Of a stretch of DNA of 64,000 nucleotides, positions 19,576 to 54,838 are shown piece by piece. The stretch is from Takakia lepidozioides (Eukaryota > Plantae > Bryophyta). Within the stretch, counting starts at the first letter, position 1; every line of letters starts with the position of its first letter. The notes under the pieces were generated by a model. That model saw only the letters and a program-made list of their open reading frames with translations. It searched no databases and was not told the origin of the DNA. A program made the translations under genes and the position numbers. The stretch spans positions 4,278,001-4,342,000 of the forward strand of contig CM060732.1 of the NCBI GenBank assembly GCA_030704615.1. Reading direction: 5' to 3'.

Positions 19576-19799
19576 GAAGAAAGTCAACTTTCGCCGCGAA
19601 GTAGGCGGATGCCGGACCAGAATTGATCACATGTCATTGGGCCCCTCATTGACCACAAGATCACGGTCGCAGGCTCTCCGTAATGGCAGTGCAAATCAAG
19701 CCACAACATCACATCCTTTGTCCTCGGACAGTGACGAACATACTTTCTGTTTTTTGGATGTTACTGTACTCACATGTTTCCTTGTCCTTTTCCTTTGGC

Positions 19800-24486: not shown

Positions 24487-24694
24487 AAGTCCCAGCAAAA
24501 GAAAAAAGATCTCAGTATTTTTGCGTACATGCCTCGAATAGAACTTCATCCAAGTTTAGCATCAGGGTTCCAAGACGTATCGAGGAAGCAAGCGCGGAAT
24601 CCCTGTGTCGCCATCACGAATCAAAACCGACGGCGGAGGACATTTAATGCCCAACTACGCAATTAAATGTCGAATGAAGTATGACGCAACGAAG

Positions 24695-25340: not shown

Positions 25341-25479
25341 TGGCCGCTTGGTTTTTTGGTCTAAAAAGACACTAAAACCTTAAGTTTGGTGGCTGAATCC
25401 ACTTTTATACACGTTTTTCAGGGAATTCTCGACTGGTAGAGAGAAATTCCTTGCTTCTTTTCCATCCCTCTTAGTTCCT

Positions 25480-26030
25480 ACATGGAAATTCGTTGCCGAA
25501 AAATCTGGCCGCGATTGCGATTACATGCCGAATGGAAGTTCGGCGCCGGTTTTCCATCTGGCCGCGATCGCGATTACCTGCCGAATGGAAATTCGGCGCC
25601 GGTTTTCCATCCGGGGGATGTTCTTTGTCGGACAGGTGCCGGCCTCTCCGCCCGAGGCGACTTCATCCGGGCGGCCCCTGTTGGATATTCGGTGCCGAAT
25701 TCCCGTCCGGGTTTGTAATGTGACGGCCATGTGCCGACCTCTCCCCCCGAGCCGACTACATCCGAACGGCCCCGGATGTAAATTCGGCGCCGTTTTTCCA
25801 TCCAGGGAGGTTTTTATGTCGGCCACTTTTCGGCCTGACCCCCCGACACGACTTCGTTTGGGGGGGCCCGGATGGAAATTCGGCGCTGAATTTCCATCCG
25901 GGGGATGTTCTCAGTCGGACAAGTGTCGGCCTCTCCGCCCGAGTCGACTTCATCCGGGCGGCCCTATTGGATATTCGGTGCCAAATTTCCATCCGGGGTT
26001 GTAATGTGACGGCCCGGTGCCGGCTTCTCC
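25480..26030. repeat. Palindromic array upstream of the transposase (type 3, ~96-bp subunits)
   Basis: Repeated GGATGGAAATTCGG(C/T)GCCG..TTTCCATCC separated by GC-rich linkers; expanded homolog at 46130-47050. Confidence 0.88.
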
Positions 26031-26295
26031 CCTTCAGCCGACATCATCCGGGCGGCCCCCCACTTTCTGACTGCATACCGTTGGCAGTTATTGCGCAAAG
26101 ACCAGGGGCCGCATTCCGGAGACAAGGTTCATTAACACTCTGACTGTGGATTTTTGAGATAGTTGGCTCCCTGGATTTGGATCAGGCTTCGTCGCTCGGA
26201 CAAATCGGCACCGCATTCCTTCCCATCGGTGCATCCCCCTTCTACCAGGGAGCTTGCCCGCACGCCATCCTGGCAGTCTTGTGTGCACATCTCCC

Positions 26296-29200
26296 ATGGC
26301 GGAAAATCCGAGCGCTACAGTGTACTGCCCTCCTCACGAGCATAGAGCTTCATTTCCGTGCAGAGGGGACATCTGCCGTGTGATGGAGAAATATTTGTGC
26401 ATTCGTTACCACCTGAAACCGGGGTCGGTTTTTTTGGAGGAGGAAAGGAAGGACTCAAACGGCGTTGTTGTCGAGAGTATTGTTGTGCTCCACGATGATT
26501 TCGGCGATGGCAGGGAATGGCGAGTTCCACCATCGGACAACGTCATATATAGGGCTGTTGGGGACTTCATTTGCCCGCCAAATGCACCTTCTATCCTGGC
26601 GTCTTCCACGAAACAATCCGCGAATCAGAGAGTGGGTACCTCAAAGAGAGAAGTCCGCAACGAAGTAAATCCAGAGCCCAACCCATCAATGAAGACGAGC
26701 GAGAACCGGGTTGTTCACAACCTGTCCGACTCCAACGAGGTCATGGAAGTTCCGAGATCGTCCTGGAGATCAGGCAAGTCCTCAATGGACGTCAGTGGAC
26801 GAGGGAGTCATATTCCCAGCACGAGCACCGCAGTTCGATCCATTCTTGAAATTCTGCAAGGGCTTCACATGGATGGACACCGCTCGGAGCTGGCTGGGCT
26901 GGACTACAGCAAGTTCACAATTAAATCGGTTACATGCCTTCCCGCAGACGTCGACGGTAATATCTTCTTTGAGTTCCCTCCTCGGACGGACTACTCGAGG
27001 GCGTCCGGAATGTTGACAGATATGGATAGAAAACATGACGTTCATCCTTGGTGTGTCACCAAAACCACCAGCATGAAGATGCTCGATGGTGTGCGGATAC
27101 GCTACGTTGTTTGTGCGGGCGCGTTGCGGTGTTTCTCCCCAACTTGCTTCCATTTTAAATCCAGAGGTCACAGGAACGAGACCGATTGGACAGGCACAGC
27201 TCATCAACCATTTCGAGCTCAGGAGAAGGTTCCGAACTCCACATTTAAGTGTGCGCATTGCAAAGAACCACCACACTGCATGTCTGTTTGTAATGCCAAG
27301 CAGTTCTATGTGTTGCACCATTTCCCTGACCTCACCCGAGCTTGCATACACGTTTGGTTCCCATTGTCACAAATTGGCAAGGGGGAACTCGTGGGAGGCT
27401 GCCCACGAGGCAGAGCAGCTCATTCAGGAGGAGGTTAAGTTGAGACCGGGTGCCAAACCCAAACAGATACAGCTCCAAGCCGCCCATAAGATCGCATTGG
27501 CCAGAATTATGTCGGAAGACGGCTCCGATAGAGTTCCTCTCGATGACAAGGAAATGGAGGCATTGCTGGAGTCGGTGTCCCACGTCTGTTCACCGAATGT
27601 CCGAAACCACATTGTCTCATGCAAACAGAAAATTGGGCGTGGCTCGGATATGCACTCCATTCTGGAGGTGAAGCGACGATGTGGATATGACTACATTCAT
27701 GGAAGTAGGTTTCCAGGACAAGGGACTGAGGCAGATCGTTGTTTCATATTCAAAATGTCCACGTGTGGACCTGGCAGCGGCGTCCAACTGGTCGACAGGA
27801 TGACGAGTGGGGACTTGTCAAACAGTTGGGTCATGTTCGACCATATCAAGCGAATTACAAATCACCAGTGGGTGACAATGGGTGCACATGTCTACGACAC
27901 CCACTGCAGGATGCTAATGACAATTGCTATTTGTGAGATGAAAGGAGAGGACACACAATTGGAGATGCTTCTTTGGCAGGGAATAAACGAACAGATGGCC
28001 AAGGCGGGATTGACCCCTCCCAATTTCCGTGGTTTCATGGCGGACAACGCACAAGCAAATTGGGCTGCCATCCGAAGGGTGTACGGGCAAGACCCCAATG
28101 TTCCCATGGAAGGCAAGGAGAGATCTTGTGGGTTCCATTTTCTGCAGAGCCTTTCGCAGTACACAACCAAGCTCGTGGCGCCAGATTTCAGAGAGGAGCA
28201 CCGTTCCATGTGTCTTGCGTGGAAGCGCGCTCCCACCTTGGATGATGCAGAGACACAGTTTGCATGTATACGGGCTTGGTGGACATCGTCAGGTGCTGTA
28301 AGGAAATCAGACGAGGGAGCAATGGTCAGTTGGCTAGCATGGTGGCATTATCGTTTCCTCCAGTTCGGCGACTATATGCGGGAGGTGAGTTGCACGAATT
28401 CGCGTCCCGTTGAATATTATTCTTGGCATTATTTGTAATTTGCTTCTAACCTCAACATGTGCTTGTGCAGGAAATGTGTCTCGACTCCGACACCGACATG
28501 CCCACGACAAACATGGCCGAATCAGTGCATTCTTCCTGGCGTGCCTCCTCTGCGGCGCATCTGGTGGACATCCTTACTGCCACAACGGAGGACATTGTGA
28601 GGTCAATTATGCAGCAATGCAGGTACAACGAGTTCTTGAAAGGGAAACAGTGGGGCTTGGGGCCGGACAGGCAGGAAATGCTGATGCGGACTGCCTCCAG
28701 ATCAAAGAATCCTCAGAAGTGGACGGCGGCCTTACGAGAGGGCCTTCGGGACACGCCATTGCTTCGAAGAGGCCAACATTTGGAAGGAGATGTTCATACC
28801 TGTCCAGCGAGACGAAGACTTGACGAGGCACCTGGCGGGGAAGAGGATTCATGGCGAGCTGACAAAAATATTTGCACGCTCCCTCGTGGTCCTGTGATGT
28901 TGCCCGAGGAGGTCTCGTCGAGCACCGCAAGTCCTGCACGTTCAAGATCGCCATCTCCTTTGAGCACAGGGCACGTGCCCGGGCAACATAACGAGCCATC
29001 TGTAGTAAAGCAGTACAACATTCCCATTGTGGAGACAAGAGTGTCGGAGTCACAGTGGAGGATTACAAGGACATTGTCGGCATTTCGAGGGAAGTGCTGC
29101 GCCATTCGGGTGGATACGAGAGCACGCTGTGGTGAGATAATTCGGAGGAACCCACACAGTGCTGTACCTGCACCTTGTTTCAGCGGCAGATTTTTGACTC

Positions 29201-29889
29201 TCACATTTGCTCACGCCACAATGCAAACGTTTTGGTTCTGTAGGCACGACATAATGACCTGTGTATTTGGCAAGCCCAAGTACGGGATTCAGGGAATGCC
29301 GGAGCCTCCGGGTGTCTGGCCTGTTGCACTAGGTTGCAGCCTCTCTCAGAATGAGGCAGATGCTCTATCTGCAGCAGGATTTTGAATGGTGCAACGCACA
29401 GACGTCCCGGCCCACGCATTTCCAGTTCCTCAGACCCAGCCATTGCAGACTGCTCGGTCCAGTAGAGACGGATTGGACAATTCTGCACATCCCACAATGC
29501 GATTCGGAAGAGTGAAGAGACGACACCCTCCCAACAAGTTGAATGAGACTCAGATTGCCAATGCTCTTGGGATGGCTTGCACTATTCAGAGCTCCGTGGA
29601 CGTACCTCCACCCGGCCTTGGGCGTGTTTATCGGATGGCAACGGCCGGCTCGGCTGTACGCGACGATGTATACACAATTACGATTAGAGTGGAGCCGACT
29701 TGCAATTGTACGGACTTCTCGTTGATCGAAGCAAAAAAGGGTTCAAAGTATTATCCGTGCAAGCATCTGTATTACATTTACCTGAAGAGGTTGAGGATGA
29801 ACGTGACTATTGATGACTTTATTCATGCACCGGCGTTGAGCGTGAACGAGCTGCACAAACTCCTCCTTAGGGATTCTAGAAATCATTGA
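26296..29889 (+). pseudogene. Mutator-like transposase (GCM/WRKY-like Zn finger, MULE DDE, C-terminal SWIM), near full length
   Basis: ATG at 26296; CAGALRC..C..CAHC..C..GSHCH; FDHIK, FMADNAQANWAAI, CGFH, TTNMAESVHS; CNC..CKH SWIM; phase-0 intron 28385-28470; one frameshift near 27355 and one in-frame TGA at 29383. Confidence 0.9.
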
Positions 29890-30039
29890 TGGGGCAAAGG
29901 GAATCCTTCATATGGATATTTTCAATTGCATTTTCATGTATCAGACTTTTTTTTGCAGTGTAATGAAATGTATCCCAAAACTCCTGGAATGAGGTAATAT
30001 TCCATTCAAACTGAGATCCAGCAGAAGCAGTTGTGGGGC

Positions 30040-30350
30040 CATTTCTGGAAAAATGGCGCCGAATTTCTCTATTTTGGGCCGAAAACTGGCTAAGTCCCAA
30101 CATGCAGTGGTACCCCTGTGTTTGGAAAAATGGCGCCGAATTTCCCTATTTTGGGCCGAAAACTGGCTAAGTCCGAACATGCACGGGAACGATGTCTGGA
30201 AAAATGGCGCCTTACACACCTGTCATGAGGGGACCTATAGCCACGGTATTCGGCACCATTTTTCGCCAGAGAGACCTATTACCGCGAAATACGTCGCGGT
30301 TTTTTCCGGTTACGGACCCTATTACCGCGAAATTCGGCGCCATTTTTGCA
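30040..30350. repeat. Subterminal degenerate copies of the AAAATGGCGCCGAATTTC motif
   Basis: Four to five copies between the transposase stop and the right terminus. Confidence 0.75.
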
Positions 30351-30542
30351 CATGTCGCTGGGAATTGGCATGAGCGGAAGACGAAATATCATGAGCACAA
30401 CTCTCAAAACTACAATTTTCCCTTCAAGGTGCCGAATAATATATTTGTTTTTTCTGACACATTGCATTAAATTAATGTTTTATAATGTTTTTTATTTTCG
30501 AAATTTGTACTTCTGCTCATGAAAACCGATTGTCTTGCTACT

Positions 30543-30590
30543 CCGCTCATGCCGCTCATGCCGCTCATGCTCATGAAATAGCTAACCTCC
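30543..30590 (-). repeat. Right terminal inverted repeat of the element
   Basis: Reverse complement GGAGGTTAGCTATTTCATGAGCATGAGCGGCATGAGCGG matches the left terminus at 38528 (GGGGGCTGCTATTTCATGAGCGGCATGAGCATGAGCGG). Confidence 0.8.
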
Positions 30591-38528: not shown

Positions 38529-38749
38529 GGGGGCTGCTATTTCATGAGCGGCATGAGCATGAGCGGAAAAAAAAAAAGCATGAGCAGACCATTGTGAATC
38601 CACGGAAATAGGGTTAGGAGGCACGGAAATAGGGTCATGTGAAGTTGGAATGTGGCACCAGTGGACTTGAAATGCATCATTTTATTGCAAATTTTGTGGC
38701 AAACCACGTCTATACAAGTGTGTTCTAACTGTCATATCCGGAATGGGCA

Positions 38750-41700
38750 CTACTCTCCTACACCCTCCGAGGAACTTGCCCCACCTTCTTCCTCATCCCC
38801 CTCATCCCCCTCATCCTCCGAGCTCTGTGATGCATCAGTTCCACTATGCCTCTCAAAAATCCCATCCTCTCCTTGGGGGACTGTCCACCTCACCTCCTGG
38901 GAATCTTCTGCGTCTTCTCCCCCACTTTCCTCAACAGAATCCAAGACAAATCTACGAGCCCGACGGGCTCTAATAGCTGCTGCCTCCTCCCTCATCTTCA
39001 TTTTCTTGAGGCTTGCCTCGTCTAAAATCTGTTGTACACGACTAGGTTCGGAACACCTCCTAATGGACACCGAAGCAAGTGGGGCAGCATAAGTAGGAAG
39101 GATGTACTTCCTTTTTGGACTAGGCATGAAATCCCCCCTGGCAAAAAAAGACACGTTCCTCCTGCCCATGAACTCCGGTGTAGACGTCCCTCCGGCAGTA
39201 CTTGGCATCCTACAGTAAGAACAAATCCACTTCAAGAATGTCAATACCAGCACAACCAGAAAGGGTTTTTCAATGAAATAAGAGAGCGGAGGGAGGTGCC
39301 TCACAAAATTTGGAGGCAACTTACAATGCCACCACTCACTCATAAACCGGGGGCTCCTCGGCCTCAATCCCAACTTCCTCCCCCTGCTCCTTCTCGGATT
39401 TTTTCCTCATCCTCCAGGATGCCTCTTCCTCTTTCGGCAGACGTTCAGCCGCTGCAAGTTCCGAGTTGTGGAGGGCAGTATCTGGCTCGAAGGCGAACAC
39501 ATGCCTGTCGAACAACGTCCCTGCCCACATTGAAGCACCTGAGGAACAAAGCGGGCGGGTTAATAGCTTGCGGCATGCAATTGCAATCGGGCCAGGGGAC
39601 AAACTGAGCACGTGAAGGCTTACCCGTGCCGCATGTGAGGTCCAGAATCCGCCCTTGGACATCCGAGCACGTCTCCATGAGGGTTTGGATGAAAGCAGGG
39701 CTCCGGGTCCGGCTGTACCGCCACGGTTTGCCTGTCTTTGTGTCCTTCGGCATACTGGAGTGGGGCACATAGTTGTAGAGGACATTGTAGGTTACAGGGT
39801 CCACAGCGGGCATCAACAAGACGACCGTCGTTGCGGAATTTGAACGTAGACCCTCTCTTCACAAAGCAATATGCCTCAAACACCAATGTCTGCACATCCA
39901 GCAAAGAAGGGATCAACCAGGGTCTACTTAACATACACCACAATATGAAGTGAATGCAATAGATTGATAACTTACACTTTGGCCCTCTGTTCGCAACCCC
40001 TGTGTACTGATGCAGAACCATTTTCTTGAGGAGGACGGGGGGTGACACTTTTCGGTGTCCACCTTGCCACCGCATTCTCTGTGGTCTTCCCTCTCGTGGC
40101 AAGGACAACCACACATCCACCCGTCATCCAGAAGCATCCCCACCAGCCCAAAACCCGGCTTTCCAGTGGTCCTCAGTAAACCTGTTCCAGGTGGGCACAC
40201 CATCCAGGCCCTCCAGCCAGCTCCCCATCTGGAATGTCGAGGAGAATCATGTCGCAAGCTCTCTCCACCTCAACCCACCCCGAGTGCTCTTGCAATCTGT
40301 GCTCACAGCCGTGAAGAATTCCATCATGGCTTCAAAACCAGGGGTGTCTTTAGGCTCTGTACTGCCAGCTATCTTCTTGGCTTTCCCCTTCTGCTCCGCC
40401 AGAGAGACTTGCTGTGTGCCACCTTTTTCGCCCTGGCAGCGAGAGCGTCAAGGAAGCTCTCATTGACGCATTGGATGATGGTTGGAGGTTCTAGCTTGGC
40501 CTGTGCGTAAACGTCACCGCCAATAACCGTCGGTAGGCTCGCCACAAATGCCAACTATTAGGCAACGCCCTCAACTGCCAACTTCTGACTTGGGACCCCA
40601 CTCCCAACAGGACCAAACCCGACGACCGGGTTGACTGGGTAGGAGCAACAGCAGTCGCAGGACCTTGAACAAAGTCGTCGTCCGAGTCACTCTCTTGGGT
40701 CCTCCTGAGGCCTCCTCCGATGCCCCGATGGTTTTCCTTCTTTTGGGGTGTTACTTGCACTCACTGTTTCCTTTGTCCATTTGCCTTTGGCCTTACTCTT
40801 CTATGCAAATCCTAATTCTGAAGATTCGCTTTCTGCCAGCAACTCGCAAGCGCTTTTGCCTCTTTTGCAACACGGCATCCAACCTAGCCATCTGTCCCAA
40901 GGTCCCTTACGCAGATGCCTTTTCCATCTGCCTTCTCTGTTCTCGGCAAGCGGAGCTGAGCCAAGTCTGCGTTCGGTCGCAAGAATTCAGCATCCAAGTC
41001 CTTCAATTGCAAAGCTCAATCCGTAAGACAGAAGATGGGTCGCGAGCGAAGCTGGGCGGAAGGTCCACATACCAAGGAATCACGCAAAATGCTCAGATGC
41101 CACTCCTTCACAATATCGTCAGTGTACATGGAATCAGCCCAGGGTTCCTCCATGCCAGGAAGAAATGGTGGCTCGAAAGACAGATGACCTTTCTCCAAAA
41201 GGGAGAACTTGCAGTACCTGCATTCATGAAAAACACAATGAGGTCCCTGAAATGCATATTCGGCACCATTTTCCCAGGTTGGGGCGGATGTGAGTGGGCC
41301 TAGAAATGGAAAAATGGCGCCGAATTTCGGTTTTCGGTGACTGCCACCCTAGGGACTTAGCCAATCTTGGGAGCCCTGAACTGGAAATTCGGCGCCATTT
41401 TTCCCGTTTGGCCCGAAGATGGCTAAGTCCCAGAACCGCAATAGGGCCTAGAACTGGAAAAATGGCGCCGAATTTCCAGTTCAGGGCCAGCCACCCTAGG
41501 GACTTAGCCCGAAAATGGCTAAGTCCCTGAACGGCAATAGGGCCTAGAACTGGAAAAATGGCGAAGAATTTCCAGTTCAGGGCCAGCCACCCTAGGGACT
41601 TAGCCCGAAAATGGCTACGTCCCTGAACGGCAATAGGGCCTAGAACTGGAAAATGGCGCCGAATTTCCACTTCAGGGCCAGCCACCCTAGGGACTTAGCC

Positions 41701-44700
41701 CGAAAATGGCTAAGTCCTGAACGGCAATAGGGCCCGGAACTGGAAAATGGCGCCGAATTTCCAGTTCAGGGCCAGCCAGTCTAGGGACTTAGCCCGAAAA
41801 TGGCTAAGTCCCTGAACGGCAATAGGGCCTAGAACTGGAAAATGGCGCCGAATTTCCAGTTCCGGGCCAGCCAGTCTAGGGACTTAGCCCGAAAATGGCC
41901 AAGTCCCTGAACAACAATAGGGCCTAGAACTAGAAAATGGTGCCGAATTTCCAGTTCAGGGCCAGCCAGTCTAGGGACTTAGCCATTTTCGGAGCCCTGA
42001 CTGGAAATTCGGCGCCATTTTCCCTAACACCACATGAGGCCTCTAACATCCTGAAATGCAAGGACTTGAAATAAAGGCAGCGCGTATGTACCTGTACAGA
42101 AGGCGCATTGCTGCTTTGTCCGTGTTCGGCTGGTCGGTGAACTCGTGGCTCCGGCGAGCATCTGCTATCTCCCGAAAGAATAGGTTGGTTTTGTAGAGCA
42201 GAAAGTACCTCGTCACATAGTCACGTAGGCTCTCTGCTGCAGGAGATATCTCCATCTTGAACTGATGTGCTTGTGTGTCCAGCTGCTCTTGCGCATTCGT
42301 CGTCACCTGTGGAGATTCTCCATCAGATCGCTTTCTTGAAAAAAATACAATGAATCCACCCCCTACTAGAGTAGAAGCCCCAAATGAAGCGTGGGGAAGT
42401 ACCTGAAACCACCATGTCATGCGGTTTCATCCACATGTCGAATGTGGGGTCAGAGAGTTTGTCCGGTTTGGGGAAGCTCCACATGTCCCTGGTATTTGGG
42501 AACCATTCCAGATTTGGAGCCACCGGGTCTGTCCAACCACCCAGCATATTCGTAAGCGCCAAACACCACAAAAAGGAGTTGTTGCCACCACAATTTGGTT
42601 AAGAATGTATCACCTTTTCTGTTGCATCCACACAGGATGTGGCTAGATGATGGAGCTTCTCCAATGTCATCGTGGGCTTCAGAGCGCGAGAGTAGTGCTT
42701 CCCCACCTCCACCAGAAAGTCGGCACCAAGGGCGGGATCAGCTATGGCCACGTACTTTACCATCCGCGACTTGTACTTTATGCGGGCCCTCACCTCCGCA
42801 GCTTTGACATACGATTCGAGTGCCGGGAGGGTTGGATTCTTCTCCTCTGACTCCATGTAGAACCTCCGCGCATGTGCCAAATCCTGCTGTATTTTCGTCT
42901 GTCAAGAATGCGCACATAAGATTAGAGATCCTGCTCAACAATTTCTTCTATTGGGGGAGGAGATTAGAAATCACGGTGAAGACCTTTTCTTCTATTGGGG
43001 GAGGAGAGACAGATTAGCTCAACAAAACTGTCAGGAGCTTTACCCGAAATATGTAGTCCACCATGGCGTCGACGCTCAGCCTATACCAGGTTCTGTCTGC
43101 CTTTGCCTCCGACTTGCGCAGGAGGTCGGCACTGAGGGAATTGGCAAACTCTTGCACCCCCTGCTTCCCGACATCCTTCACTCGGAAGAGCATATGGGAC
43201 AAGTTGGTGGCGATGAAGGCATTCTCAGTCACCCTGCAGTGCCACATTTCCATCAAACAATACTGAAATGGGAATTTTCATTATATATGAGGATTCGCAA
43301 TGAAATGACTTCCAAATTCAAAGTCCAAAAGCGAGAGGCGTTGTAACTTACGAGTTGATGTCCGCCATTGCAGCTTTGAGAAGACTGCGATTTTTGGGCC
43401 CCGCAACCTTCAGCACAACACACTCCACGGCGAAATGCCAATCGAGGTTGTTGGGGTGAGCTTGGGCAATGTGCTCCATCCATGCCAGGAGGCGATGATT
43501 GCCGTCCCACACGTAGAACATCTTACCGGACAAGTGCTGGAAAAGAGGATCACTAGCAATCGATCTCTCGAACTCCTCATTTCGCGTTTGCCAATGGGGA
43601 CCCCATTTGTCCACCTCATCGGAAGTGTGGGCACGGGAAGCTCCGTGGTCGTTCTCAATGGAAACGTAAAACGCGGCAGACCCCATTCGATATCCATCCC
43701 GGAAAGAGAATTTCAGCTTGTCGATATCGCCTGGGAGGGCAGGTCTCACCACCTGCAATGACACCAAGCGGCAAAGGGGAATTCGAAGCTTGGCCGGGTA
43801 CACCATGCCCCCAGCACCCTGCCAATGTTGCTGTGGGTTGCCTCCAACATCTTAGCAGCGGCCAACTTCATATCCACCTCCGACATGACGTCTGCTGCAG
43901 AGGGGTTTTCCGGCAGCCCACCAGGACCGCCAAATCCAGCCTGTATGCTCCGGGTTTGGGGCCTGGGGATGTCCGGGAGGATGTCATCCTGGTCAGAAAG
44001 CTCCCTGTCGTCCTCCTCAACAGGGTCAGCCACCTGCGAAACCACCTCCAGCACTCTCCCCGTCTCTACTGCCCTCTCCCTGGCTTCACCTCGAACTTGC
44101 ACAATCCGTGCTCTTTCTGGTGTTCTTTCCTCTCCTCCACTCTCCACCGTATGGGTAATTGCAGGGGCTGCTCTTGCCGCGATGGTCTAACCGGTGTGTT
44201 GCTGCCTCTTTGTGGTGTCTTGGAGGGATCCACCGTCTCTGTGCGTCCCTCACTTACATGGGAATTTGTTCGTTCGGAACCCCTGGCCTCTTCAGTGGCC
44301 TTTTCTCTTTCCTCCTGGCTAGCCTTGTGTCTTGCCTGTTCTTTTGCCATCTCTTTTGCCCTCTCACGGGCTCTCTGTTTCTTATTAGGACTAGCAGCAA
44401 GGGAGCCCGGATGGACGACCACCTTTGAGGTAGGCGAATTGACACCCTCGCGCGCACTGCGAACTCCCCCCTCCGCAGCCCGTGACGGCTCTTGCGCCGG
44501 GGATTGCACGCGCTTGGCTTTCTTCTTCTTCTTTGCTTGGACGGGCCCTACTGCTTCTGCATCAACAACCTCCATTGCCGGATCTGCTGTTCTCACTTCC
44601 TCACGCCCTTCACCAACCTCCCCAATGCCTATTCTGTCGTACTCTCGCTGTAGGTCCTCCCGTCCACCAACAAAAGGTTGAAGTTTGCCCTCTCGCTCCA

Positions 44701-45295
44701 AGGTGGGCGGTTCAAACATGCGATGAGTTGCAGCAGTCGATGATACCACCAGCGTGCCGGGCTCGTCGTCACTCTGTCATTCCCAAAATCGTGAGAACCA
44801 ACATCGGTGCCAAAACCAGCATCGCAACCACCATAGCAACAATTGTGTAACAAAAATGAAAACATAACAAGTTTAGGAAGTATGGAGAGCCATGCAACAA
44901 CAATGAAAACAAATGCAACCATTGCCTGAGAATGACATGCACAAGCAGCCTTCTCCAAAGCTGCCGGATTTGCACACGCATTGCAAACAATCTAAGGTTC
45001 ACTCAACTATCTAAAGTTCACTCATCCAGCGAAGCCAGGATGAAGATGCAAAAACAAAGCGAGGCAACAAAGCGAAAGCAAAAGCGAAATCGAACAAAGC
45101 GAAAGCAGAAGTGGCTTGCCTGAGAGTAGTCGGCTCAGTTGGCGCGGGTTGTGAGCAAGACACTGGAATCTCCTGCTGGAGCTTCAGTTTGGCCATGCGA
45201 GAGATTGGCCGTCGTCCGTAGTACAGAGCTTTCAACTTCCGCCGCGGTCTGGATGTGAGGTCTCTCTCAGGAGAGCCACGCCCTTCAGGCGGCAT
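38750..45295 (-). pseudogene. ParB/Srx plus beta-class N4C/N6A DNA methyltransferase-like multi-exon gene, copy B
   Basis: ParB FYVWDGNHRLLA near 43500; array-filled intron 41218-42091; MTase motifs CDMILLDIPDG (40256-40224), LLDD(G)GCVVV, FEAYCFVK, RSPAFIQTLMETCSDVQGRILDLTCGTG|ASMWAGTLFDRHVFAFEPD joined across intron 39539-39623; acidic C-terminal tail. The 3' half has many 1-bp frameshifts. Confidence 0.78.
41255..42025. repeat. Intronic tandem array, 95-bp monomer (deletion derivative of the 146-bp unit)
   Basis: GGGACTTAGCC at 41499, 41595, 41690, 41784, 41879 and 41974. Confidence 0.95.
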
Positions 45296-45499
45296 AAGTC
45301 CCAGCCAAAATGGAAAAAGATCTCCGTTTTTGGGGTACATGCCTCGAATAGCATGTTAAGCCAAGATTAGCATCAGATTTAGGGTACGTATCCAGGAAGC
45401 CATGTGTCGCCAGCCCGAATGAAAACGGACGGCGGTGGACATTTATTGCCCAACTGCGCAATTAAATGTCGGATGAAGCCCTCCATGTCGGATGAAAAA

Positions 45500-46010
45500 C
45501 GACGGAACTCGGCCCGGAATTTCCAACGTAGAGGTAATTCAGAGCGCTGCAGGATGGAAATCCGGCGCCGGATTTCCATCCTGCAGGTAATTCGGAGCGC
45601 AGCAGGATGGAAACTCAGCGCCGAATTTCCATCCTGCAAGGTAGGGCGGCGCGCAAAATTTCCCTCACGCAGGTAATTCAGAAGCAGATGGATGGAAATC
45701 CGGCGCCGAATTTCCATCCGCGCAGGTAGGACGGCGCGCGAAATTTCCCTCACGCATTTAATTCCGAAGCGCATGGATGGAAATCCGGCGCCGGATTTCC
45801 ATCCGCAAGGTTGGTTGGAGAGCGGATGGATGGAAATCCGGCGCCGAATTTCCATCCTGTAGGTAATTCGAATCCCGGATGGATGGAAATCCGGCGCCGA
45901 ATTTCCATCCAGCAGGTAAGTCGGATCGCTGGCGTATGGATATTTGGCGCCGAATTTCCATTCGCCAGGTATTTTGAAGCGCTGAATTACCTTCCTGCAG
46001 GTAATTCTGA
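45500..46010. repeat. Type 2 palindromic array, copy B
   Basis: Repeated GGATGGAAATCCGGCGCCG(G/A)ATTTCCATCC and CAGGTAA modules. Confidence 0.92.
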
Positions 46011-46129
46011 GCGTGTCCGATTGATTTTTCGGAGAAAAACAAACTAAACTGTTTGTTTTGTGGCTGAAGTGCACTTGTAGACACGTTTTTCTTGGAATCC
46101 TTGACTGCTAGAGGCAAATCGGAACAGCC

Positions 46130-47050
46130 TCGGACGGAAATTCGGCGCCGTTTTTCCATTCTGGGAGGTTTTGACGACTTCCTTTGAGGGGGCGGGATGG
46201 TCTCTGTCGGAGAGGTGCCGGCCTCTCCGCCGCTCTGTTGGATATTCGGTGCCGAATTTCCGTCCGGGGGTTGAGATATGACGGCCAGGTGCCGGCATCT
46301 CCCCCCTCCCCGACTGCATTGGAACGGCCCCGGATGGAAATTCGGCGCCGTTTTTCCATCTGAGGAGGTTTTTATGTCGGCCAGTTTTCGGCCTGACCCC
46401 CCGAGACGACTTCATTTGGGGGGGCCCGGATGGAAATTCGGCGCCGAATCTTCATCCAGGGGATGCTCTCTGTTGAACACGTGCCGGCCTCTACGCGCGA
46501 GGCGACTTCATCCGGGCGTCCCCTGTTGGATATTCGGTGCCGAATTTCCGTCCGGGGGTTGAAATGTGACGGCCAGGTGCCGGCCTCTCCCCCCTCCCCG
46601 ACTGCATCCGAACCGCCCGGATGGAAATTCGGTGCCGTTTTTCCATCTGGGGAGGTTTTATGTCGGCCAGTTTTCGGCCTGACCCCCCGACACGACTTCC
46701 TTTGGGGGGGCCCGGATGGAAATTCGGCGCCGAATCTCCATCCAGGGGATGTTCTCTGTCGCACACGCGCCGGCCTCTGCGCCCGAGGCGACTTCATCCG
46801 GGCTTCCCCTGTTGTATATTCGGTGCCGAATTTCCGTCCGGGGGTTGTAATGTGAGGGCCAGATGGATCCTTTGGGGGGATCCGAATGGAAATTCGGCGC
46901 TGAATTTCCATCCGGGGGATGTTCTCTGTCGGACAAGTGCCGGCATCTCTGCCCCAGACGACTTCATCCGTGCGGCCCCTGTTGGATATTGGGTGCCGAA
47001 TTTCCATTCGGGGGTAGTAATGTGACGGCACGGTGCCGGCTTCTCCCCTT
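46130..47050. repeat. Type 3 palindromic array, copy B (~96-bp subunits, ~286-bp higher-order repeat)
   Basis: ATGTCGGCCAGTTTTCGGCCTGACC at 46374 and 46660; palindromic cores roughly every 92-101 bp. Confidence 0.9.
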
Positions 47051-47132
47051 CAGCCGACATCATCCGGACGGCCCCCCACTTTCTGACTGCATACCGTTGG
47101 CAGTTATTGCGCAAAGACCAGGCACATCTCCC

Positions 47133-47699
47133 ATGGCGGAAAACCCGAGCGCTACAGTGTACTGCCCTCCTCACGAGCATAGAGCTTCATTTCCGTGCAG
47201 AGGGGACATCTGCCGGGTGATGGAGAAATATCCGTGCGTTCGATACGCCCTGAAACCGGGGTCGGTTTTTTTGGAGGAGGAAAGGAAGGACTCAAACGGC
47301 CTTGTTGACGAGAGTATTGTTGTGCTCCACGATGATTTCGGCGATGGCAGGGAATGGCGAGTTCCACCATCGGACAGCGTCATATACAGGGCTGTTGGGG
47401 ACTTCATTTGCATGCCAAATGCACCTTCTATCTTGGCGCCTTCCACGAAACAATCCGCGAATCAGAGAGTGGCTACCTCAAAGAGAGAAGTCTGCAACAA
47501 AGTAAATCCAGAGCCGAACCCATCCATGAAGACGAGCGAGAACCGGGTTGTTCACAACCTGTCCGACTCAGACGAGGTCATGGAAGTTCCGAGGTCGTCC
47601 TGGAGATCAGGCAAGTCCTCAAACGTTGAGCGTGAACAAGCTGCACAAACTCCTCCTTAGGGATTCCAGAAATCATTGATGGGGCAAAGGGAATCCTCC
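47133..47699 (+). pseudogene. Internally deleted transposase of copy B
   Basis: MAENPSATV..SWRSGKSS (matches 26296-26785) fused directly to the equivalent of 29834-29889; ~3.05 kb missing. Confidence 0.92.
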
Positions 47700-47819
47700 A
47701 TATGGATATTTTCAATTGCATTTTGCTGTATCAGACTTTTTTTTGCAGTGTAATGAAATGCACCCCAAAACTCCTGGAATGAGGCAATATTCCATTCAAA
47801 CTGAGATCCAACAGAAGCA

Positions 47820-49515
47820 GAGGCCATTTCTGGAAAAATGGCGCCGAATTTCTCTTTTTGGGGCCGAAAACTGGCTAAGTCTTCGGCACCATTTTCCTAG
47901 GTTGGGCCCGAAAATGGCTAAGTCCCAGAACTGACTGGGCGCGGAACTAGAAAAATGGCGCCGAATTTCCGGTTGCGGTTCCAGCCACCCTAGGGACTTA
48001 GCCATTTTCGGGGCCCTGAACTGGAAAAATGGCGCCATTTTTCCATTACGGGGCTGAAAATGGCTAAGTCCCAGATCTGACTGGGCCTGGAACTGAAAAA
48101 ATGGCGCCGAATTTCCGATTTTGCTGCCAGCCACCCTAAGGACAGCCATTTTCGGCCCCGAACTGGAAAAATGACGCCATTTTTCCAGTTCGGGGCCAAA
48201 AATGGCTAAGTCCCAGATCTGACAGGGCGCGGAACTGGAAAAATGGCGCCGAATTTCCGGTTGCGGTTCCAACCACCTTAGGGACTTAGTCATTTTCGGG
48301 GCCTTAAACTGGAAAAATGGCGCCATTTTTCCATTTCGAGGCCGTAAATGGCTAAGTCCTAGATCTGACTGGGCCTGGAACCGGAAAAATGGCGCCGAAT
48401 TTCCGATTTTGGTGCCAGTCAGATCTGGGACTTAGCCATTTTCGGCCCCGAACTGAAAAAATGACGTTTTTTTTTTTTGTTTTTTTTTTCCGGCGCCATT
48501 TTTCCAGTTCGGGGCCGAAAATGGCTAAGTCCCAGATCTGACTGGGCCCGGAACTGGAAAAATGGCGCCGAATTTCCGATTTTGGTGCCAGCCACCCTAG
48601 GGACTTAGCCATTTTCGGCCCCGAACTGGAAAATGGCGCCATTTTTCCAGTTCGGGGCCGAAAATGGCTAAGTCCCAGATCTGATAGGGCGCGAAACTGG
48701 AAAAATGGTGCCGAATTTCCAGTTGCGGTTCCAGCCACCGTAGGAACTTAGCCATTTTCGGGGCCCTGAACTGGAAAAATGGCGCCATTTTTCCATTTCG
48801 GGGCCAAAAATGGCTAAGTCCCAGATCTGACTGGGCCCAGAACTGGAAAAATGGCGCCGAATTTCCGATTTTGGTGCCAGTCAGATCTGGGACTAAGCCG
48901 TTTTCAGCCCCGAACTGGGAAAATGACGTTTTTTTTTTTTTTTTCTTTTTATTTTTCTTTTTCGGCGCCATTTTTCCAGTTCGGGGCCGAAAATGGCTAA
49001 GTCCCAGATCTGACTGGGCCCGGAACTGGAAAAATGGCGCCGAATTTCCGATTTTGGTGCCAGCCACCCTAGGGACTTAGCCATTTTCGGCCCCGAACTG
49101 GAAAAATGGCGCCATTTTTCCAGTTCGGGGCCGAAAATGGCTAAGTCCCAGATCTGATAGGGCGCAAAACTGGAAAAATGGTGCCGAATTTCCAGTTGCG
49201 GTTCCAGCCACCGTAGGGACTTAGCCATTTTCGGGGCCCTGAACTGGAAAAATGGCGCCATTTTTCCATTTCGGGGCCGAAAATGGCTAAGTCCCAGATC
49301 TGACTGGGCCCAGAACTGGAAAAATAGCGCTGAATTTCCGATTTTGGTGCCAGTCAGATCTGGGACTTAGCCGTATTCGGCCCCGAACTGGGAAAATGAC
49401 GTTTTTTTTTCTTTTTTCTTTTTTCTTTTTCGGTGCCATTTTTCCAGTTTGGGGCCGAAAATGGCTAAGTCCCAGATCTGACTGGCACAAAAATCGGAAA
49501 TTCGGCGCCATTTTT
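47820..49515. repeat. Type 1 array (142-146-bp units, some with poly-T inserts) downstream of the transposase
   Basis: GGCTAAGTCC at 47916, 48062, 48204, 48350 and onward. Confidence 0.93.
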
Positions 49516-49519
49516 CCAG

Positions 49520-50225
49520 TCATGCAAGTAATTCGAAGAGCGGATGGATGGAAATCCGGCGCCGGATTTCTATCCGCCACGTAAGTCGGCGCGCAAAATT
49601 TCCGTCATGCAGGTAAATCGAAGAGCGGATGGATGAAAATCCGGCGCCGGATTTCCATCCTCCAGGTAAGTCGGTGCTACAAATTTCTGTCATGCAGGTT
49701 ACTTGTGAGCGGATGGATGGAAATCCGGCGCATGATTTCCATCCGCCAGGTACAAAATTTCCGTCATGCAGGTAATTCGGAGCGCGGATGGATGGAAATC
49801 CGGCGACGGATTTCCATCCTCCAGGTAAGTCGGTGCGCAAAATTTCCGTCATGCAGGTAATTCGAAGAGCGGATGGATGGAAATCCGGTGCCGGATTTCC
49901 ATCCGCCAGCTAAGTCGGCGCGCAAAATTTCCGTCATGCAGGTAATTCGAAGAGCGGATGGATGGAAATCCGGCGCCGGATTTCCATCCGCCAGGTAGGT
50001 CGACGCGCAAAATTTCCATCATGCAGGTAATTCGGAGCGCAGATGGATGGAAATCCGGCGCCGGATTTCCATCCTCCAGGTAAGTCGGCGCTGCAAATTT
50101 CCGTCATGCAGGTAATTCGAAGAGCGGATGGATGGAAATCCGGCGCCGAATTTCCGTTAGGCAGGTAATTCGGAGGGCGGATGGATGGAAATCCGGCGCC
50201 GGATTTTCATCCGCCAGCTAAGTCG
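49520..50225. repeat. Type 2 array, 85-bp period
   Basis: CATGCA(G/A)GT at 49521, 49606, 49691, 49765, 49850, 49935, 50020 and 50105. Confidence 0.95.
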
Positions 50226-50227
50226 GA

Positions 50228-51530
50228 TGCAAGAAGCATTGTAACTTACGAGTTGATGTCTGTCATTACCGCTTTGAGAAGATTGCGATCTTTGGGCCCC
50301 GCAACCTTCAGCACAACACACTCCACGGCGTAACGCCAATCCAGGTCGTTGGGGTGGGCTTGGGCTACATGCTCCATCCATGCCAGGAGGCGATGATTGT
50401 CGTCCCACACGTAAAACATCTTTCCGGACAAGTGGTGGAAAAGAGGATCAGTAGCAATCAATCTCTCGAACTCCTCATTTCGCCTTTGCCAATGAGGACC
50501 CCATTTGTCCACCTCATCGGAAGTGTGGGCACGAGAAGCTCCATGGTCGTTCTCCATGGAAACGTAAAACGTGGTAGACCCCATTCGATATCCCTCCCAA
50601 AAAGAGAATTTCAGCTTGTCGATATCGCCTGGGAGGGCAGGTCTGACCACCTGCAATGAAACCAGCGGCAAAGGGGAATCCGAAGCTTGGCCGGGTACAC
50701 CATGCCCCCCAGGACCCTGCCAATGTTGCTGTGGGTTGCCTCCAACATCTTGGCAGTGGCGAACTTCATATCCGCCTCCGACATGACGTCTGTTGCAGGG
50801 GGGTTCTCCGGCAGCCCACCCGGACCGCCAAATCCAGCCTATATGCTCCGGGTTTGGGGCCTGGGGATGTCCGGGAGGATGTCATCCTGGTCAAAAAGCT
50901 CCCTCTCGTCGTCCTCAACATGGTCAACCACCGCCGGAACTACCTCCAGCACTCTCCCCGTCTCTACTGCCCTCTCACCGGCTTCACCTCGAACTTGCAC
51001 AATCCGTGCTCTTTGTGGTGTTCTTTCCCCTCCTCCAGTCTCCACCGTATGGGTAATTGCGGGGGCTGCTCCTGCCCGCGATGGTGTAACCGGCGTGTTA
51101 CTGCCTCTTTGTGGTGTCTTGGATGGATCCACCGTTTCTATGCGTCCCTCGCTTACATGGGCATCTGTCATTTCCACACCCCTGGCCTCTTCAGTGGCCT
51201 TTTCTCTTTCCTCCTGGCTAGCCTTCTGTCTCGCCCGTTCTTTTGCCCTCTCTTTTGCCCTCTCACGGGCTTTCTGTTTCTTACTAGGGGTAGCAGTAGG
51301 GGAGCCCTCCAGGACGACCACCTTTGATTGAGGCGAATTGACACCCTCGCGCGCCCTGCTCACTCCCCCCTCCGCAGCCCGTGACGGCTCTCTCGCCGGG
51401 GAATGGCTTTCTTCTTCTTCTTTGCGTGGGCGGGCCCTACTGCATGTGCATCAACATTCTCCATTGCCGGATCTGCTGTCCTCATACGATGTCCTTCACC
51501 TGCCATGCCGCCTGCACCAACCTCCCCAAT
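50228..51530 (-). pseudogene. ParB-gene fragment C (N-terminal and ParB exon)
   Basis: FYVWDDNHRLLAW (G to D change); collinear with 22320-23670. Confidence 0.88.
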
Positions 51531-51649
51531 GAGAATCACGTCCCGGGAATGAGGTTAATGTTTCGTCAAGAAACTGCAAAAATGGTGCCAAATTTCTATG
51601 CGGGGTGGGCCTGATGGTCCCGGTTCCCCGGGGTGCCGTGCAATGAAAG

Positions 51650-52560
51650 TGGTAATTCGGCGCCATTTTTCCCAAGGGTGAGGGAGCCCATTATGGGACT
51701 TAGCCGTTTTGGGGCCCAACCTAGAGAAATGGCGCCGAATTTCCACTTTCGGGCCCCAGAAATGGCTAAGTCCCTCGGGTGGCTAGCACCAAAACTGGAA
51801 ATTCGGCGCCATTTTTCCAGGTTGGGGCCCAGCGCTTTCTGGGACTTGGCCACTTTCGGACCCAGCCTGGAAAAATGGCGCCGAATTTCCAATTCTGGGC
51901 CTCGAAAATGGCTAAGTCCCGGGGGTGGCTGGCACCGATACTGGAAATTTGGCGCCATTTTTCCAGGTTGGGGCCCAGCCCTTTCTGGGACTTAGCCACT
52001 TTCGGACCTAGCCTGGAAAAATGGCGCCAAATTTCCACTTTCAGGCCCCAGAAATGGCTAAGTCCCTCGGGTGGCTGGCACCGAAACTGGAAATTCGGCG
52101 CCATTTTTCCAGGTTGGGGCCCAGCGCTTTCTGGGACTTAGCCACTTTCGGACCCAGCCTGGAAAAATGGCGCCGAATTTCCAGTTCCAGGCCCCAAAAA
52201 TGGCTAAGTCTCGGGGGTGGCTGGCACCGATACTGGAAATTCGGCGCCATTTTTCCAGGTTGGGGCCCAGCCCTTTCTGGGACTTAGCCATTTTCGGACC
52301 CAGCCTGGAAAAATGGCGCCGAATTTCCAGTTCCGGGCCCCGAAAATGGCTAAGTCCCGGGGGTGGCTGGCACCGATACTGGAAACTCGGCACCATTTTT
52401 CCAGGTTGGGGCCCAGCCCTTTATGGGACTTAGCCACTTTCGGACCCAGCCTGGAAAAATGGCGCCGAATTTCCAGTTCCGGGCCCCGAAAATGGCTAAG
52501 TCCCGGGGGTGGCTGGCATCGATATTGGAAATTCGGCGCCATTTTCCCTGTCTCGGGGGC
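51650..52560. repeat. Type 1 array, exact 146-bp period, in the intron position of fragment D
   Basis: GGCTAAGTC at 51764, 51910, 52056, 52202, 52348 and 52494; lies downstream of the donor at 52684. Confidence 0.96.
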
Positions 52561-52684
52561 AGTCACCCCAGGGACTTCGCCATTTCTTCACAACCAATTG
52601 TCATGCCCCACACAAGCCGTTTTACATCCACGAACTCCAGGGACTACAATGGCCACAGATCAAAGAGGAGCACCGCATATTTAC

Positions 52685-53351
52685 CTGTACAGAAGGCGCA
52701 TTGCCGCTTTGTCCGCGTTCGGCTGGTCGGTGAACTCGTGGCTCCGGCGGGCATGCGGTATCTCTCGAAAGAACAGGTCGGTTTTGTAGAGCAGAAAGTA
52801 CCTCGCCACATAGTCGCGTAGGCTCTCTGTTTCTCCAGAAATCTCCAGCTTGAACTGATGTGCTTGGGTGTCAAGCTGCTCTTGCGCATTTGTCGTCACC
52901 TGTGGAGATTCTCCATCAGACCGCATTCCTCAATAAATACAATAAATCCACCAGATACAAGAGTAGAAGTGCCAAATGAAGCGTGGGAAAGTACCTGAAA
53001 CCACCATGTCATGCGGTTCATCCACATGTCAAATGTGGGGTCAGACAGTTTGTCGGGTTTGGGGAAGCTCCACATGTCCCTTGTACTCTGGGACCCATTC
53101 CAGATTTGGAGCCACCGGGTCTGTCCAACCACCGTGCATATTAGTAAGTGCCAAACACCACGAAAACGAATTGTTGCCACAAGAGAATTTGGTTAAGAAT
53201 GTATAACCTTCTATGTTGCATCCACACAGGCTATGGTTAGACGATGCACCTTCTCCAGTGTCATCGTGGGCTTAAGAGCGCGGGAGTAGTGCTTCCCCAC
53301 CTCCACCAGAAAGTCGGCACCAAGGGCGGGATCAGCTATAGCCACGTACTT
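52685..53351 (-). pseudogene. ParB-gene fragment D (middle exons)
   Basis: TRWLQIWNGSQSTRDMWSFPKPD and VTTNAQEQLD..AAMRLLYR, homologous to 21121-21785. Confidence 0.88.
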
Positions 53352-53928
53352 CACCATTCTTCCTGACATGCTGCTGTCTCACTTCCTTCTTCATCTATTG
53401 TGTCTACCCGTTGCATGATTCCCAACGTCGCTTGCTCTTCGGCCGTTAGGTGTACAGTGTGTCGAATCATCTGGAGTAACAATGGAGTTGCCATGGTAAC
53501 AGTCGCTTCCTTCTTCTTCTTTGTCAACCTGGTCAGTTCTTGAGTTAACTTCTTCAATAAGAAGCTTGCCCAATTCACGATTTGCCCATTGAAGCAAATC
53601 AACACTTGGTCGATTAGCTCCTTGGTACATATCTGCGACATTTGCTAGAACTTCTTCCAGATGGAATAATTCATATTCCCTGACTCGTAATGATTCTTCT
53701 AAGCCCCATCGTTCATGAGTTCCGGTTCGTAGTGTGGGTATCATACATTCAATGGGTAATAGTGCCTCTGCTCCATACACTAGTGAAATGGTGTATGCTT
53801 CGTGGTCACCTTGTATGATGTCCTGAATGCCCATAGTGTTGTGTTCAATTTGGTGTCCCAATCTGTACGATTAGCATTTACTATCTTGGTTAAAATAGTG
53901 CATAATATTTTGTTGGTAGATTCAGCAA
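53352..53928 (-). pseudogene. Gypsy integrase C-terminal and extra-ORF fragments fused by deletion
   Basis: STNKILCTILTKIVNANRTDWD..LVYGAEALLP joined to ELIDQVL..VNWASFL. Confidence 0.85.
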
Positions 53929-54838
53929 ACGTCATGTCGGAGACGGATATGAAGTTGGCCGCTACCAAGATTTTGGAGGCAACCCACAGCAACATTGGCA
54001 GGGTCCTGGGGGGCATGGTGTACCCGGAAAAGCTTCGGATTCCTCTCTGCCGCTTGGTATCATTGCAGGTGGTGAGACCTGCCCTCCCAGACGATATCGA
54101 CAAGCTCAAATTCTCTTTCCGAGAGGGATATCGAATGGGGTCTGCCGCGTTTTATGTTTCCATTGAGAACGACCATGGAGCTTCTTGTGCCCACACTTCC
54201 GATGAGGTGGACAAATGGGGTCCCCATTGGCAAAGGCGAAATGAGGAGTTCGAGAGATTGATTGCTACTGATCCTCTTTTCCACCACTTGTCTGGAAAGA
54301 CATTTTACGTGTGGGACGGCAATCATCGCCTCCTGGCATGGATGGAGCATGTAGCCCAAGCCCACCCCAACGACCTAGATTGGCGTTACGCCGTGGAGTA
54401 TGTTGTGCTAAAGGTTGCGGGGCCCAAAGATCGCAGTCTTCTCAAAGCTGCAATGGCAGACATCAACTTGTAAGTTACAATGTCTCTTGCTTTGGAACTT
54501 TGAATTTGAAACAATCATTTCATTGCCAATCGTCATATTTGTTGCAAATTTTCATTTCAGTATCATTTAATGGAAATGTGGCATTGCAGGGTGACTGAGA
54601 ATGCCTTCATTTCGGGTACAGCTCCCAACTCTTTTGTTGACATAATCTGTCTTTGCTCCCCCAATAGAAGAAAAAGTGTGGACCAGGATTTCTAATCTTA
54701 TGTGCGCATTGTTGACAGACGAAAATTCAGCAGGATTTGGCACATGCGCGGAGGTTCTACATGGAGTCAGAGGAGAAGAAACTAACCCTCCCGGCATTGG
54801 AATCATATCTCAAAGCTGCGGAGGCGAAGGCCCGCATC
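53929..54838 (+). pseudogene. ParB-gene fragment E (inverted)
   Basis: VMSETDMKLAA..FYVWDGNHRLLAW..ADINL, then AHARRFYMESEEK..AEAKARI; one exon internally deleted. Confidence 0.88.

Follow-up and report, generated by a model that had tools for sequence, protein, structure and literature searches.

The closest described counterpart of the locus reported here is Sola1-1_Ec32, an element of the brown alga Ectocarpus. The accessible text of PMC12477816 describes for it a protein of 1104 amino acids with ParB-like and N4C/N6A methylase domains, encoded on the strand opposite the transposase, and cites similar proteins for green and red algae. In Bostrychia as well as in further red algae, Plavaka elements carry PAG2 (PF01555 and SET) and PAG3 (ParB and 2-oxoglutarate (2OG) oxygenase), according to the available part of bioRxiv 10.1101/2025.02.11.637652. 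We analyzed a stretch of 64,000 nucleotides from Takakia lepidozioides (Bryophyta; assembly GCA_030704615.1, contig CM060732.1, positions 4,278,001 to 4,342,000), referred to below as the window. It contains copies of an element that, to judge from its sequence, is likely a many-copied DNA transposon of Mutator type. An accessory gene of this transposon, on the minus strand, very probably includes a domain derived from a beta-class methylase.

The Takakia locus resembles Sola1-1_Ec32 in having a putative ParB-like and an amino-methylase domain, in one predicted gene, on the strand opposite the transposase of a large DNA transposon. It differs in its host, a land plant, and in its transposase, which is Mutator-like and not of the Sola1 type; the two are compared by architecture, not by sequence. 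Motif IV is eroded here, whereas the accessible Ectocarpus description is silent on the algal motif. As with red-algal PAG2 and PAG3, ParB and PF01555 modules travel here on DNA transposons (among the red-algal carriers are Mutator elements of Chondrus), and, as in the Bostrychia elements, tandem inverted-repeat arrays stand beside the ParB gene. As far as the available part of the preprint describes them, the red-algal modules are divided between two genes, where they are joined to different partners, and InterPro recognizes PF01555. In the window the modules are collinear in one predicted gene, and single exons of the methylase domain fall below the cut-off of Pfam. The architecture is already published for algae, and the present locus is a land-plant, motif-eroded and probably Mutator-borne variant of it. 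Our literature search, which was not exhaustive and did not include Repbase or the Bostrychia supplements, found no description of this architecture from a land plant. By analogy, the accessory protein probably works like, and belongs to, the algal ParB-methylase accessory class.

VANC of the Arabidopsis VANDAL elements is also an accessory gene of Mutator-like elements (MULEs), and there too a short motif has been multiplied into tandem arrays, which occupy introns and intergenic DNA. The motif varies from one VANDAL family to another, and both binding and demethylation by VANC have been demonstrated (PMC5735166, accessible text). VANC is, in the available part of bioRxiv 10.1101/2025.02.11.637652, the only case shown of a plant transposon that binds and modifies its own sequence. 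The motif here is palindromic, unlike that of VANC; function here is predicted from sequence, and the two systems are likened by arrangement and not by homology. Fusions of ParB-HTH with chlorophyte Dam-type methylases (Iyer 2016, PMC4738411, accessible part) were considered as a match and rejected, being of a different class.

The methylase-like domain and its reading frame

The first-pass annotation had proposed a beta-class methylase domain that becomes visible only after splicing. All six peptides on which it relied were found at their positions on the minus strand and in beta-class order. These are the motif IV-like CDMILLDIPDG (40256-40224), LLDDG (40134-40120) and GCVVVL (40118-40101) of the motif VI region, FEAYCFVK of strand 7 (39880-39857), RSPAF..DLTCGTG with the pre-motif I helix and motif I (39705-39622), and ASMW..FEPD (39536-39480). 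They are distributed over all three minus-strand frames. The order of motif IV, target recognition domain and motif I is that of the beta-class amino-methyltransferases (PF01555).

Motif I is divided by an 85-bp GT-AG intron (39623-39539, GTAAGC..CCTCAG), and its removal joins DLTCGTG to ASMWAG in frame, as had been claimed. With this intron taken out, the match to a hidden Markov model (HMM) built from five beta-class enzymes of phages improves from 4.3 bits (1/1000 shuffles as high) to 15.0 bits (0/1000), a score that is not fully independent because the HMM was picked via the exon of a relative. The single splice proposed earlier thus raises the methylase score, but it does not restore the domain by itself; a second intron of 86 bp (39975-39890, GTAAGT..GTGCAG) and about six frameshifts have to be removed as well. 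Our read-through of the window was built with seven X, one of them at the junction of this second splice, and its frame is uncertain for one stretch of 16 residues ahead of that junction. This copy of the methylase-like gene is broken by frameshifts.

Read along the minus strand, the region from motif IV (DMILLDIPDG) to motif VI (LLDDG-CVVVL) at 39976..40265 carries about five frameshifts and is followed by the 86-bp intron (39890..39975). The next exon (39624..39889) holds strand 7, a variable region and RSPAF..DLTCG, with a frameshift at 39808. Beyond the 85-bp intron (39539..39623) lies an exon with the end of motif I, helix A and motif II (HVFAFEPD; 39340..39538), with 1-bp indels near 39399 and 39415. 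We place a putative intron C (GTGAGT..TGTAG) at 39210..39339, where the relative L001 (described below) also has an intron. The predicted last exon, with an acidic tail (38750..39209), is defined by an AG acceptor and by homology to the last exon of L001 (score 53, 1/2000 shuffles as high). An AATAAA and a poly(A) site follow at 38668..38686.

Relatives and fold assignment

None of seven single window fragments of the domain matched a Pfam methyltransferase at E<=1. The Pfam cut-off for PF01555 is 26.7 bits; as single exons, L001 reached 13.5 bits, the protein relative P0004 reached 12.6 bits, and the window exons gave no match. One exon, compared with 1.84 billion proteins, yielded 11 matches, six of which are true exon-sized relatives that all end near the same position of motif I. 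The other five (P0006, P0008, P0010, P0012, P0013) were discarded as repeat proteins; P0001 and P0002 were used for the ParB comparison only. No full-length relative was found among 7992 candidates scored.

A metagenome scan found three AT-rich relative loci, L001-L003, which read DLTCSTGAS at motif I, uninterrupted by an intron. L001 and L002 carry the domain in open exons, with a 92-bp intron ahead of strand 7 at the same site as the 86-bp intron of the window. The window read-through and L001 are 26% identical over 233 columns (pairwise E 1e-21). Matches of the L001 motif I exon include phrog_3008 (E 1.3e-5) and phrog_67, and 30/30 of its Atlas clusters carry PF01555 at 0.93-0.95. Against phage proteins, 24 of the 25 rows listed for this exon are annotated methylases (best E 1e-3). 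The motif I loop and the acidic end of strand 2 are kept, since DLTCGTG and FAFE of the window align with DLTMGSG and IGIE of the phage enzymes.

The N-terminal half, with motif IV, is placed with less force. The motif IV exon of L002, taken alone, is assigned to Atlas PF01555 clusters at 0.92; against the phage HMM its alignment is not significant (522/1000 shuffles as high). The motif IV half of the window gives a weak alignment score (38/1000 shuffles as high), and its assignment rests on register together with the Atlas match of the relative. Weak tests of the N-terminal half gave 2/1000 shuffles as high for the window against the relatives' HMM, and 1/200 with a probability of 3% in a profile-profile comparison. 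Searching PDB sequences returned only DpnA for the L001 exon (E 0.63-0.74) and nothing for the queries A1 and A3. An AlphaFold model of the motif IV half-domain had low confidence (pLDDT 45) and its best Z score, 5.0, was to unrelated folds; the model is mostly strands and lacks the expected alternation, a mismatch to which we give no weight for a half-domain at such confidence. The sequences thus support a beta-class methylase fold, the assignment being good for the C-terminal half and fair for the N-terminal half. The earlier assignment to this class is borne out by the intact relatives, both halves of which map to PF01555.

The closest sequence matches are phage and bacterial DpnA/DpnIIB-like methylases, with DLILTDLPYG and DLTMGSGS where the window has DMILLDIPDG and DLTCGTGA. 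The matched phages are Cellulophaga phage Nekkels_93, Vibrio phage H188, Lactococcus phage D4840 and Campylobacter phage CJIE4-3. In contrast to the gene described here, the phage enzymes are stand-alone, intronless genes of 250-320 amino acids with the motif IV Tyr, and they are not ParB fusions. A phage ParB-methylase had been considered as the closest relative; the five phage enzymes fetched include none. In tblastn searches against phages, the ParB exon, P0002 and the motif IV exon each gave only chance rows or none, and one match, H26, was dropped as antisense to a terminase. Viral contigs and prokaryote genomes held no relative at E<=1e-3 in scans that need near-exact words, and this null result therefore remains compatible with a viral or prokaryotic donor.

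Motif IV and catalysis

In register, motif IV reads VDLILTDLPYG in phage, VDLVFLQFPDG in L002 and CDMILLDIPDG in the window. The first-pass annotation had taken DPPY/SPPY as its reference; D[ILV]PY, present in 5/5 of the closest phage enzymes fetched, fits better. We tallied the motif in L002 and 36 close relatives (37 rows), omitting nine rows without letters there, which left 28. At position 4 these rows have D (24/28), N (2), Y (1) or G (1), and the motif is mostly QFPD. At position 1, Q stands in 25/28 rows and D in none; 27/28 lack D, N or S there. The sole row with Y at position 4 has Q at position 1. The stacking aromatic of the catalytic (D/N/S)-P-P-(Y/F/W) pattern is thus absent from the DIPD of the window and from 27/28 relatives. 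In L001, the first Gly of motif I is also replaced, by Ser.

DIPD had been explained as a one-base change of this copy (GAT versus TAT). Asp, however, also occupies the position in 24/28 rows of the distant AT-rich family, and a private TAT-to-GAT change is unlikely when two distant lineages share the residue. For the same reason, the earlier suggestion of a decayed copy holds for the frameshifts of the window and fails for its motif IV. The first residue of the motif serves proton abstraction and the last one target-base stacking, and eroded motifs occur in the non-catalytic METTL14 and MTA9 (PMC7544214, accessible text). Mutation of SPPY to APPA abolishes activity (PMC8885841, accessible text). 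As the window lacks one key residue of motif IV and the relatives lack both, we infer that the family, having lost the base-stacking aromatic, has also lost catalysis. Our best reading of the domain is a putative non-catalytic DNA reader.

METTL14 (EPPL) and MTA9 (NALW) have in common with this domain a beta-class fold and an eroded motif IV (PMC7544214, accessible text); they are MT-A70 host proteins paired with an active subunit, whereas the element examined here yielded no such partner. Rotifer N4CMT and Marchantia MpDN4MT1 are likewise eukaryotic beta-class enzymes of bacterial type, and N4CMT has introns (PMC8885841; bioRxiv 10.1101/2021.02.12.428880; accessible parts). In contrast to the present gene, they function as active enzymes of their hosts, lack ParB and are not transposon cargo; N4CMT combines SPPY with a chromodomain. 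Nothing points to a relation with the rotifer SPPY enzymes of N4-methylcytosine (4mC): Ser stands at position 1 in 0/28 rows and is absent there from the window.

Sequencing reads and transcripts

Reads from four of 14 sequencing runs (including X1, X2, X5 and X8) were mapped onto the window; X8 was taken as RNA by guess. A total of 43,484 X1 contigs were placed, many of them 90-99% alike, and the stretch therefore has many variant copies; X1 depth is not equivalent to copy number. We mapped the 1-bp indels at 39399, 39415, 39808, 40120, 40495, 41163, 42425, 42494 and 43807 against the reads. These nine are missing from 1/3 to 4/5 of the X1 and X2 depth and from long X5 contigs. Of 11 indels inspected, 8 lie in homopolymer runs, like long-read errors, and the copy also has private G/C-to-A/T changes; the indels may equally be assembly errors, as raised earlier, or real decay.

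X8 contig 27 directly bridges the 86-bp intron (39890-39975; record 4-299, then 300-566), the counterpart of the 92-bp intron of L001 and L002. Its match ends at the donor of the 85-bp intron, which L001-L003 do not have, with 204 letters remaining. X8 has no depth at 39557, and a depth of 20.9 is present again at 39415 and 39399. From this contig end and depth pattern, the 85-bp intron is probably spliced in the RNA-like run. One X8 contig terminates in poly(A) at 38668 and shows a loose poly-T end before this position; spliced, polyadenylated X8 contigs do not have the 39808 frameshift.

The accessory gene upstream of the domain

The predicted minus-strand gene starts near 44719; its ParB-like exon is followed by middle exons, by an intron filled with an array and, at the 3' end, by the methylase part. 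The exon at 43352..44719 has a candidate ATG, a basic KKKKKAKR stretch and a ParB-like domain (WDGNHR, 43851-43352). Its matches are weak: phrog_1033 at E 0.012 for the window and 0.29 for P0002, and DndB at E 0.26. The exon is 42% identical to its relatives P0001/P0002. A low-confidence model of it (pLDDT 43) has no fold match with Z over 4. The pN/pS ratio of this exon is 0.24-0.43 in 6/6 pairs of its four window copies.

The middle exons (42092..43234), with several small introns, were placed from translations and putative borders and have no family match. They are followed by a large intron with a 95-bp palindrome array (41218..42091), predicted from its GT/AG borders, and by a decayed linker part (40266..41217) recognized from translations, from X8 contig 29 on 40315-40521 and from the acceptor at 41218; the linker may hold additional small introns. 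Between 40590 and 41030 the linker differs between copies A and B of the element and is perhaps fast-changing. No DNA contig aligned to 40810-41030 at 80% likeness, and X8 likewise leaves the array intron uncovered; we drew on neither gap as evidence. The ParB and methylase exons are collinear on one strand with GT-AG borders, opposite the transposase, and we infer one ParB-to-methylase transcript.

The host transposon and its palindrome arrays

Copy B, which holds the gene described above, begins at 38529..38585 (plus strand) with a G-run, GCTATTTCATGAG and GCTCATG/CATGAGC repeats, adjoining gypsy reverse transcriptase sequence. This left end matches, in inverted orientation, 30515-30590 (the right end of copy A) and the end of L001, which reaches the same terminus about 170 bases beyond its last exon. 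The terminal inverted repeats, as expected of a MULE, comprise about 13 bp of exact match and the heptamer repeats, and were read from two different copies. Mutator-like elements make target-site duplications of 9-11 bp. Each copy in the window lacks at least one end; hence no duplication is readable there. About ten bases past the end of the element in L001 (1412-1440), another sequence starting with GGGGAGT is found, as if two like-ended elements lay head to head.

Copy A (19750-30590) is collinear with copy B and lacks the methylase exons. Its 3'-truncated accessory gene, with ParB exons, a 146-bp array and central arrays, lies at 19750..26060 on the minus strand (85% to 41245-45007). The frameshifted Mutator-like DDE transposase (26400..29890, plus strand) ends in a SWIM finger (E 0.003, 17.5 bits; cut-off 19.6). 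It matches an IS256 transposase weakly (E 0.049) and has no Pfam MULE match. By eye, we place what we take to be its D/D/CxxH/E landmarks at 27830, 28031, 28124 and 28504; they have no profile match. Its N-terminal region is rich in Cys and His and is presumably GCM-like, a label for which no match was obtained. Right subterminal palindromes and the right terminus occupy 29900..30590 (plus strand). In copy B the transposase is a remnant (47122..47881, plus strand) with a 3-kb internal deletion, recognized by its similarity to copy A: 47122-47622 corresponds to 26285-26785 (95%) and 47624-47881 to 29834-30096 (94%). At 47882..54837 follow fragments C and D, rearranged pieces of this family that include arrays and two more ParB exons, one of them inverted.

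A palindromic core centered on GGCGCC has 129 matches in the window, all within the element and none in the flanks. All but one (128/129) lie in non-coding arrays or subterminal DNA; the other is in the transposase. The same core recurs in arrays of 146, 95, 53/85 and 96 bp period, of which the central 53/85-bp and 96-bp arrays (45490..47080) separate the two divergent genes. Most palindromes are distant from the ends, in the accessory-gene intron and in intergenic DNA. L002 carries seven copies of a different palindrome, TTCTAGAA (TCTAGA core), in positions 1-110, upstream of its first visible exon. At 49072-49149, a perfect 78-bp palindrome marks a strand switch inside a 146-bp array; further perfect ones in the arrays measure 24-40 bp. 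Observed/expected CpG is 0.57-1.28 in the element and 0.34 in gypsy, values that are confounded by age and by CpG in the motif and were not used.

Other features of the window

Decayed gypsy-like retroelements occupy 31600-38528 (plus strand) and 358-1822 (minus strand); in the former, 33579-33816 is repeated at 38291-38528 (98%), directly against the left end of copy B. Fragments at 12100-12400 and 14500-15900 (minus strand) resemble another DNA transposon by eye (CKNGCVLF and KHFPL stretches), which we take to be CACTA-like. An intact frame of 684 amino acids at 55995-58049 (minus strand) has PPR, E, E+ and DYW deaminase domains, as in organellar RNA-editing factors. Another of 757 amino acids at 59332-61605 (plus strand), intronless there, has two SURP modules and a PRP21-like domain (SF3A1 type). 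Together with the gypsy fragments, these two frames suggest eukaryotic DNA of land-plant origin. A minisatellite with an 11-bp unit rich in CTAGTGG lies at 4450-4737, and the GC skew is strong (0.5) over 7000-9000.

Discussion

We consider the chances even that intact copies encode a non-catalytic accessory protein that binds the arrays of its own element and keeps the element active, a prediction drawn from the motifs and from analogy. Such copies would produce one nuclear protein with a ParB-like and a beta-class methylase domain. The former is predicted to bind the GGCGCC-centered arrays. The latter, without the motif IV aromatic, would act without methylating DNA, and its partly kept motif I and motif II Glu suggest that it may still bind S-adenosylmethionine. 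By analogy with VANC and METTL14/MTA9, the protein may be a dimeric DNA-binding scaffold that coats the non-coding arrays, so that the element would stay transcribed or transposable in a methylating host.

Several observations weigh against this reading. The ParB call is weak, with one PHROG match at E 0.012 and none in Pfam or NCBIfam, and the substitutions shared among the four ParB copies are few (five synonymous, six not). Among the X8 pieces listed, none connects ParB exons to methylase exons. The short contigs L001-L003 do not include the ParB exon, so the fusion is seen in the window only, and the exon just upstream of motif IV shows no similarity between L002 and the window (1420/2000 shuffles as high). 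All 28 relatives belong to a single family of closely similar copies (68-99% alike) and therefore amount, with the window, to evidence from two lineages and not from 28. Array copies do not count as independent of one another, and this inflates the shuffle control for the 129 palindrome matches. Palindromes also occur beside the right terminus, where they may serve as sites for the transposase, and MULE transposases themselves are reported to activate cognate copies (bioRxiv 10.64898/2026.08.24.746577, accessible part). In the window, finally, position 1 of motif IV is still Asp and the DxxxGxG is intact.

This last point bears on a reading that we consider rather unlikely, namely an active amino-methylase of altered chemistry, guided by its ParB-like domain, that marks its own element with N6-methyladenine (6mA) or 4mC. 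Besides the Asp of the window, this reading has in its favor that both the window and L001 preserve motif I and the Glu of motif II, and that two lineages only 26% alike preserve the fold as a whole; self-modification has been proposed for algal elements (PMC12477816; bioRxiv 10.1101/2025.02.11.637652; accessible parts). The stacking aromatic is nevertheless missing throughout, save for one row of 28, and the relatives moreover lack the acidic or polar residue at position 1 (27/28) and have Ser for the first Gly of motif I.

We also doubt that the arrays are bound by the transposase, the accessory protein being, for example, a transpososome partner or a decoy for host chromatin readers. Seven core motifs do lie in the right subterminal region, the transposase has its Cys/His-rich N-terminal region, and WRKY-GCM1 DNA-binding domains occur on MULE transposases (PMC1702500, accessible text). 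Most palindromes, however, are far from the ends and none is near the left end, and ParB genes stand beside inverted-repeat arrays in unrelated Plavaka elements too (bioRxiv 10.1101/2025.02.11.637652, available part). A captured gene without function, carried along and decaying as the element spreads, would account for the frameshifts of the domain (about six), the G/C-to-A/T differences from other copies and the loss of the methylase exons from copy A, but is very improbable given a pN/pS under 0.45 in the ParB exon, the open exons, conserved intron site and shared terminus in a lineage whose protein is 26% alike, and the spliced, polyadenylated RNA-like contigs that do not have the 39808 frameshift.

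The preferred reading, a non-catalytic protein that binds the element's own arrays, can be extended to self-recognition of the ParB-parS kind, although we think it quite unlikely that this extension is right in full. A clamp would load on the arrays, spread, and deliver a methylase fold that flips or shields cytosines from silencing by 5-methylcytosine (5mC), and protein and palindrome would change together between lineages.

The algal ParB-methylase genes are proposals, and the present case adds a land-plant, Mutator-like carrier. The family-wide loss of the catalytic aromatic argues against the idea of self-methylation for these members. With candidate binding sites now named for two lineages, reciprocal binding can be tested directly. 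Were the protein to prove active nonetheless, it would represent an amino-methylase that lacks the aromatic of motif IV. If the ParB-parS-like extension were true, the element would carry an anti-silencing system made of prokaryotic parts, independent of VANC, that may be usable as a sequence-specific epigenome tool.

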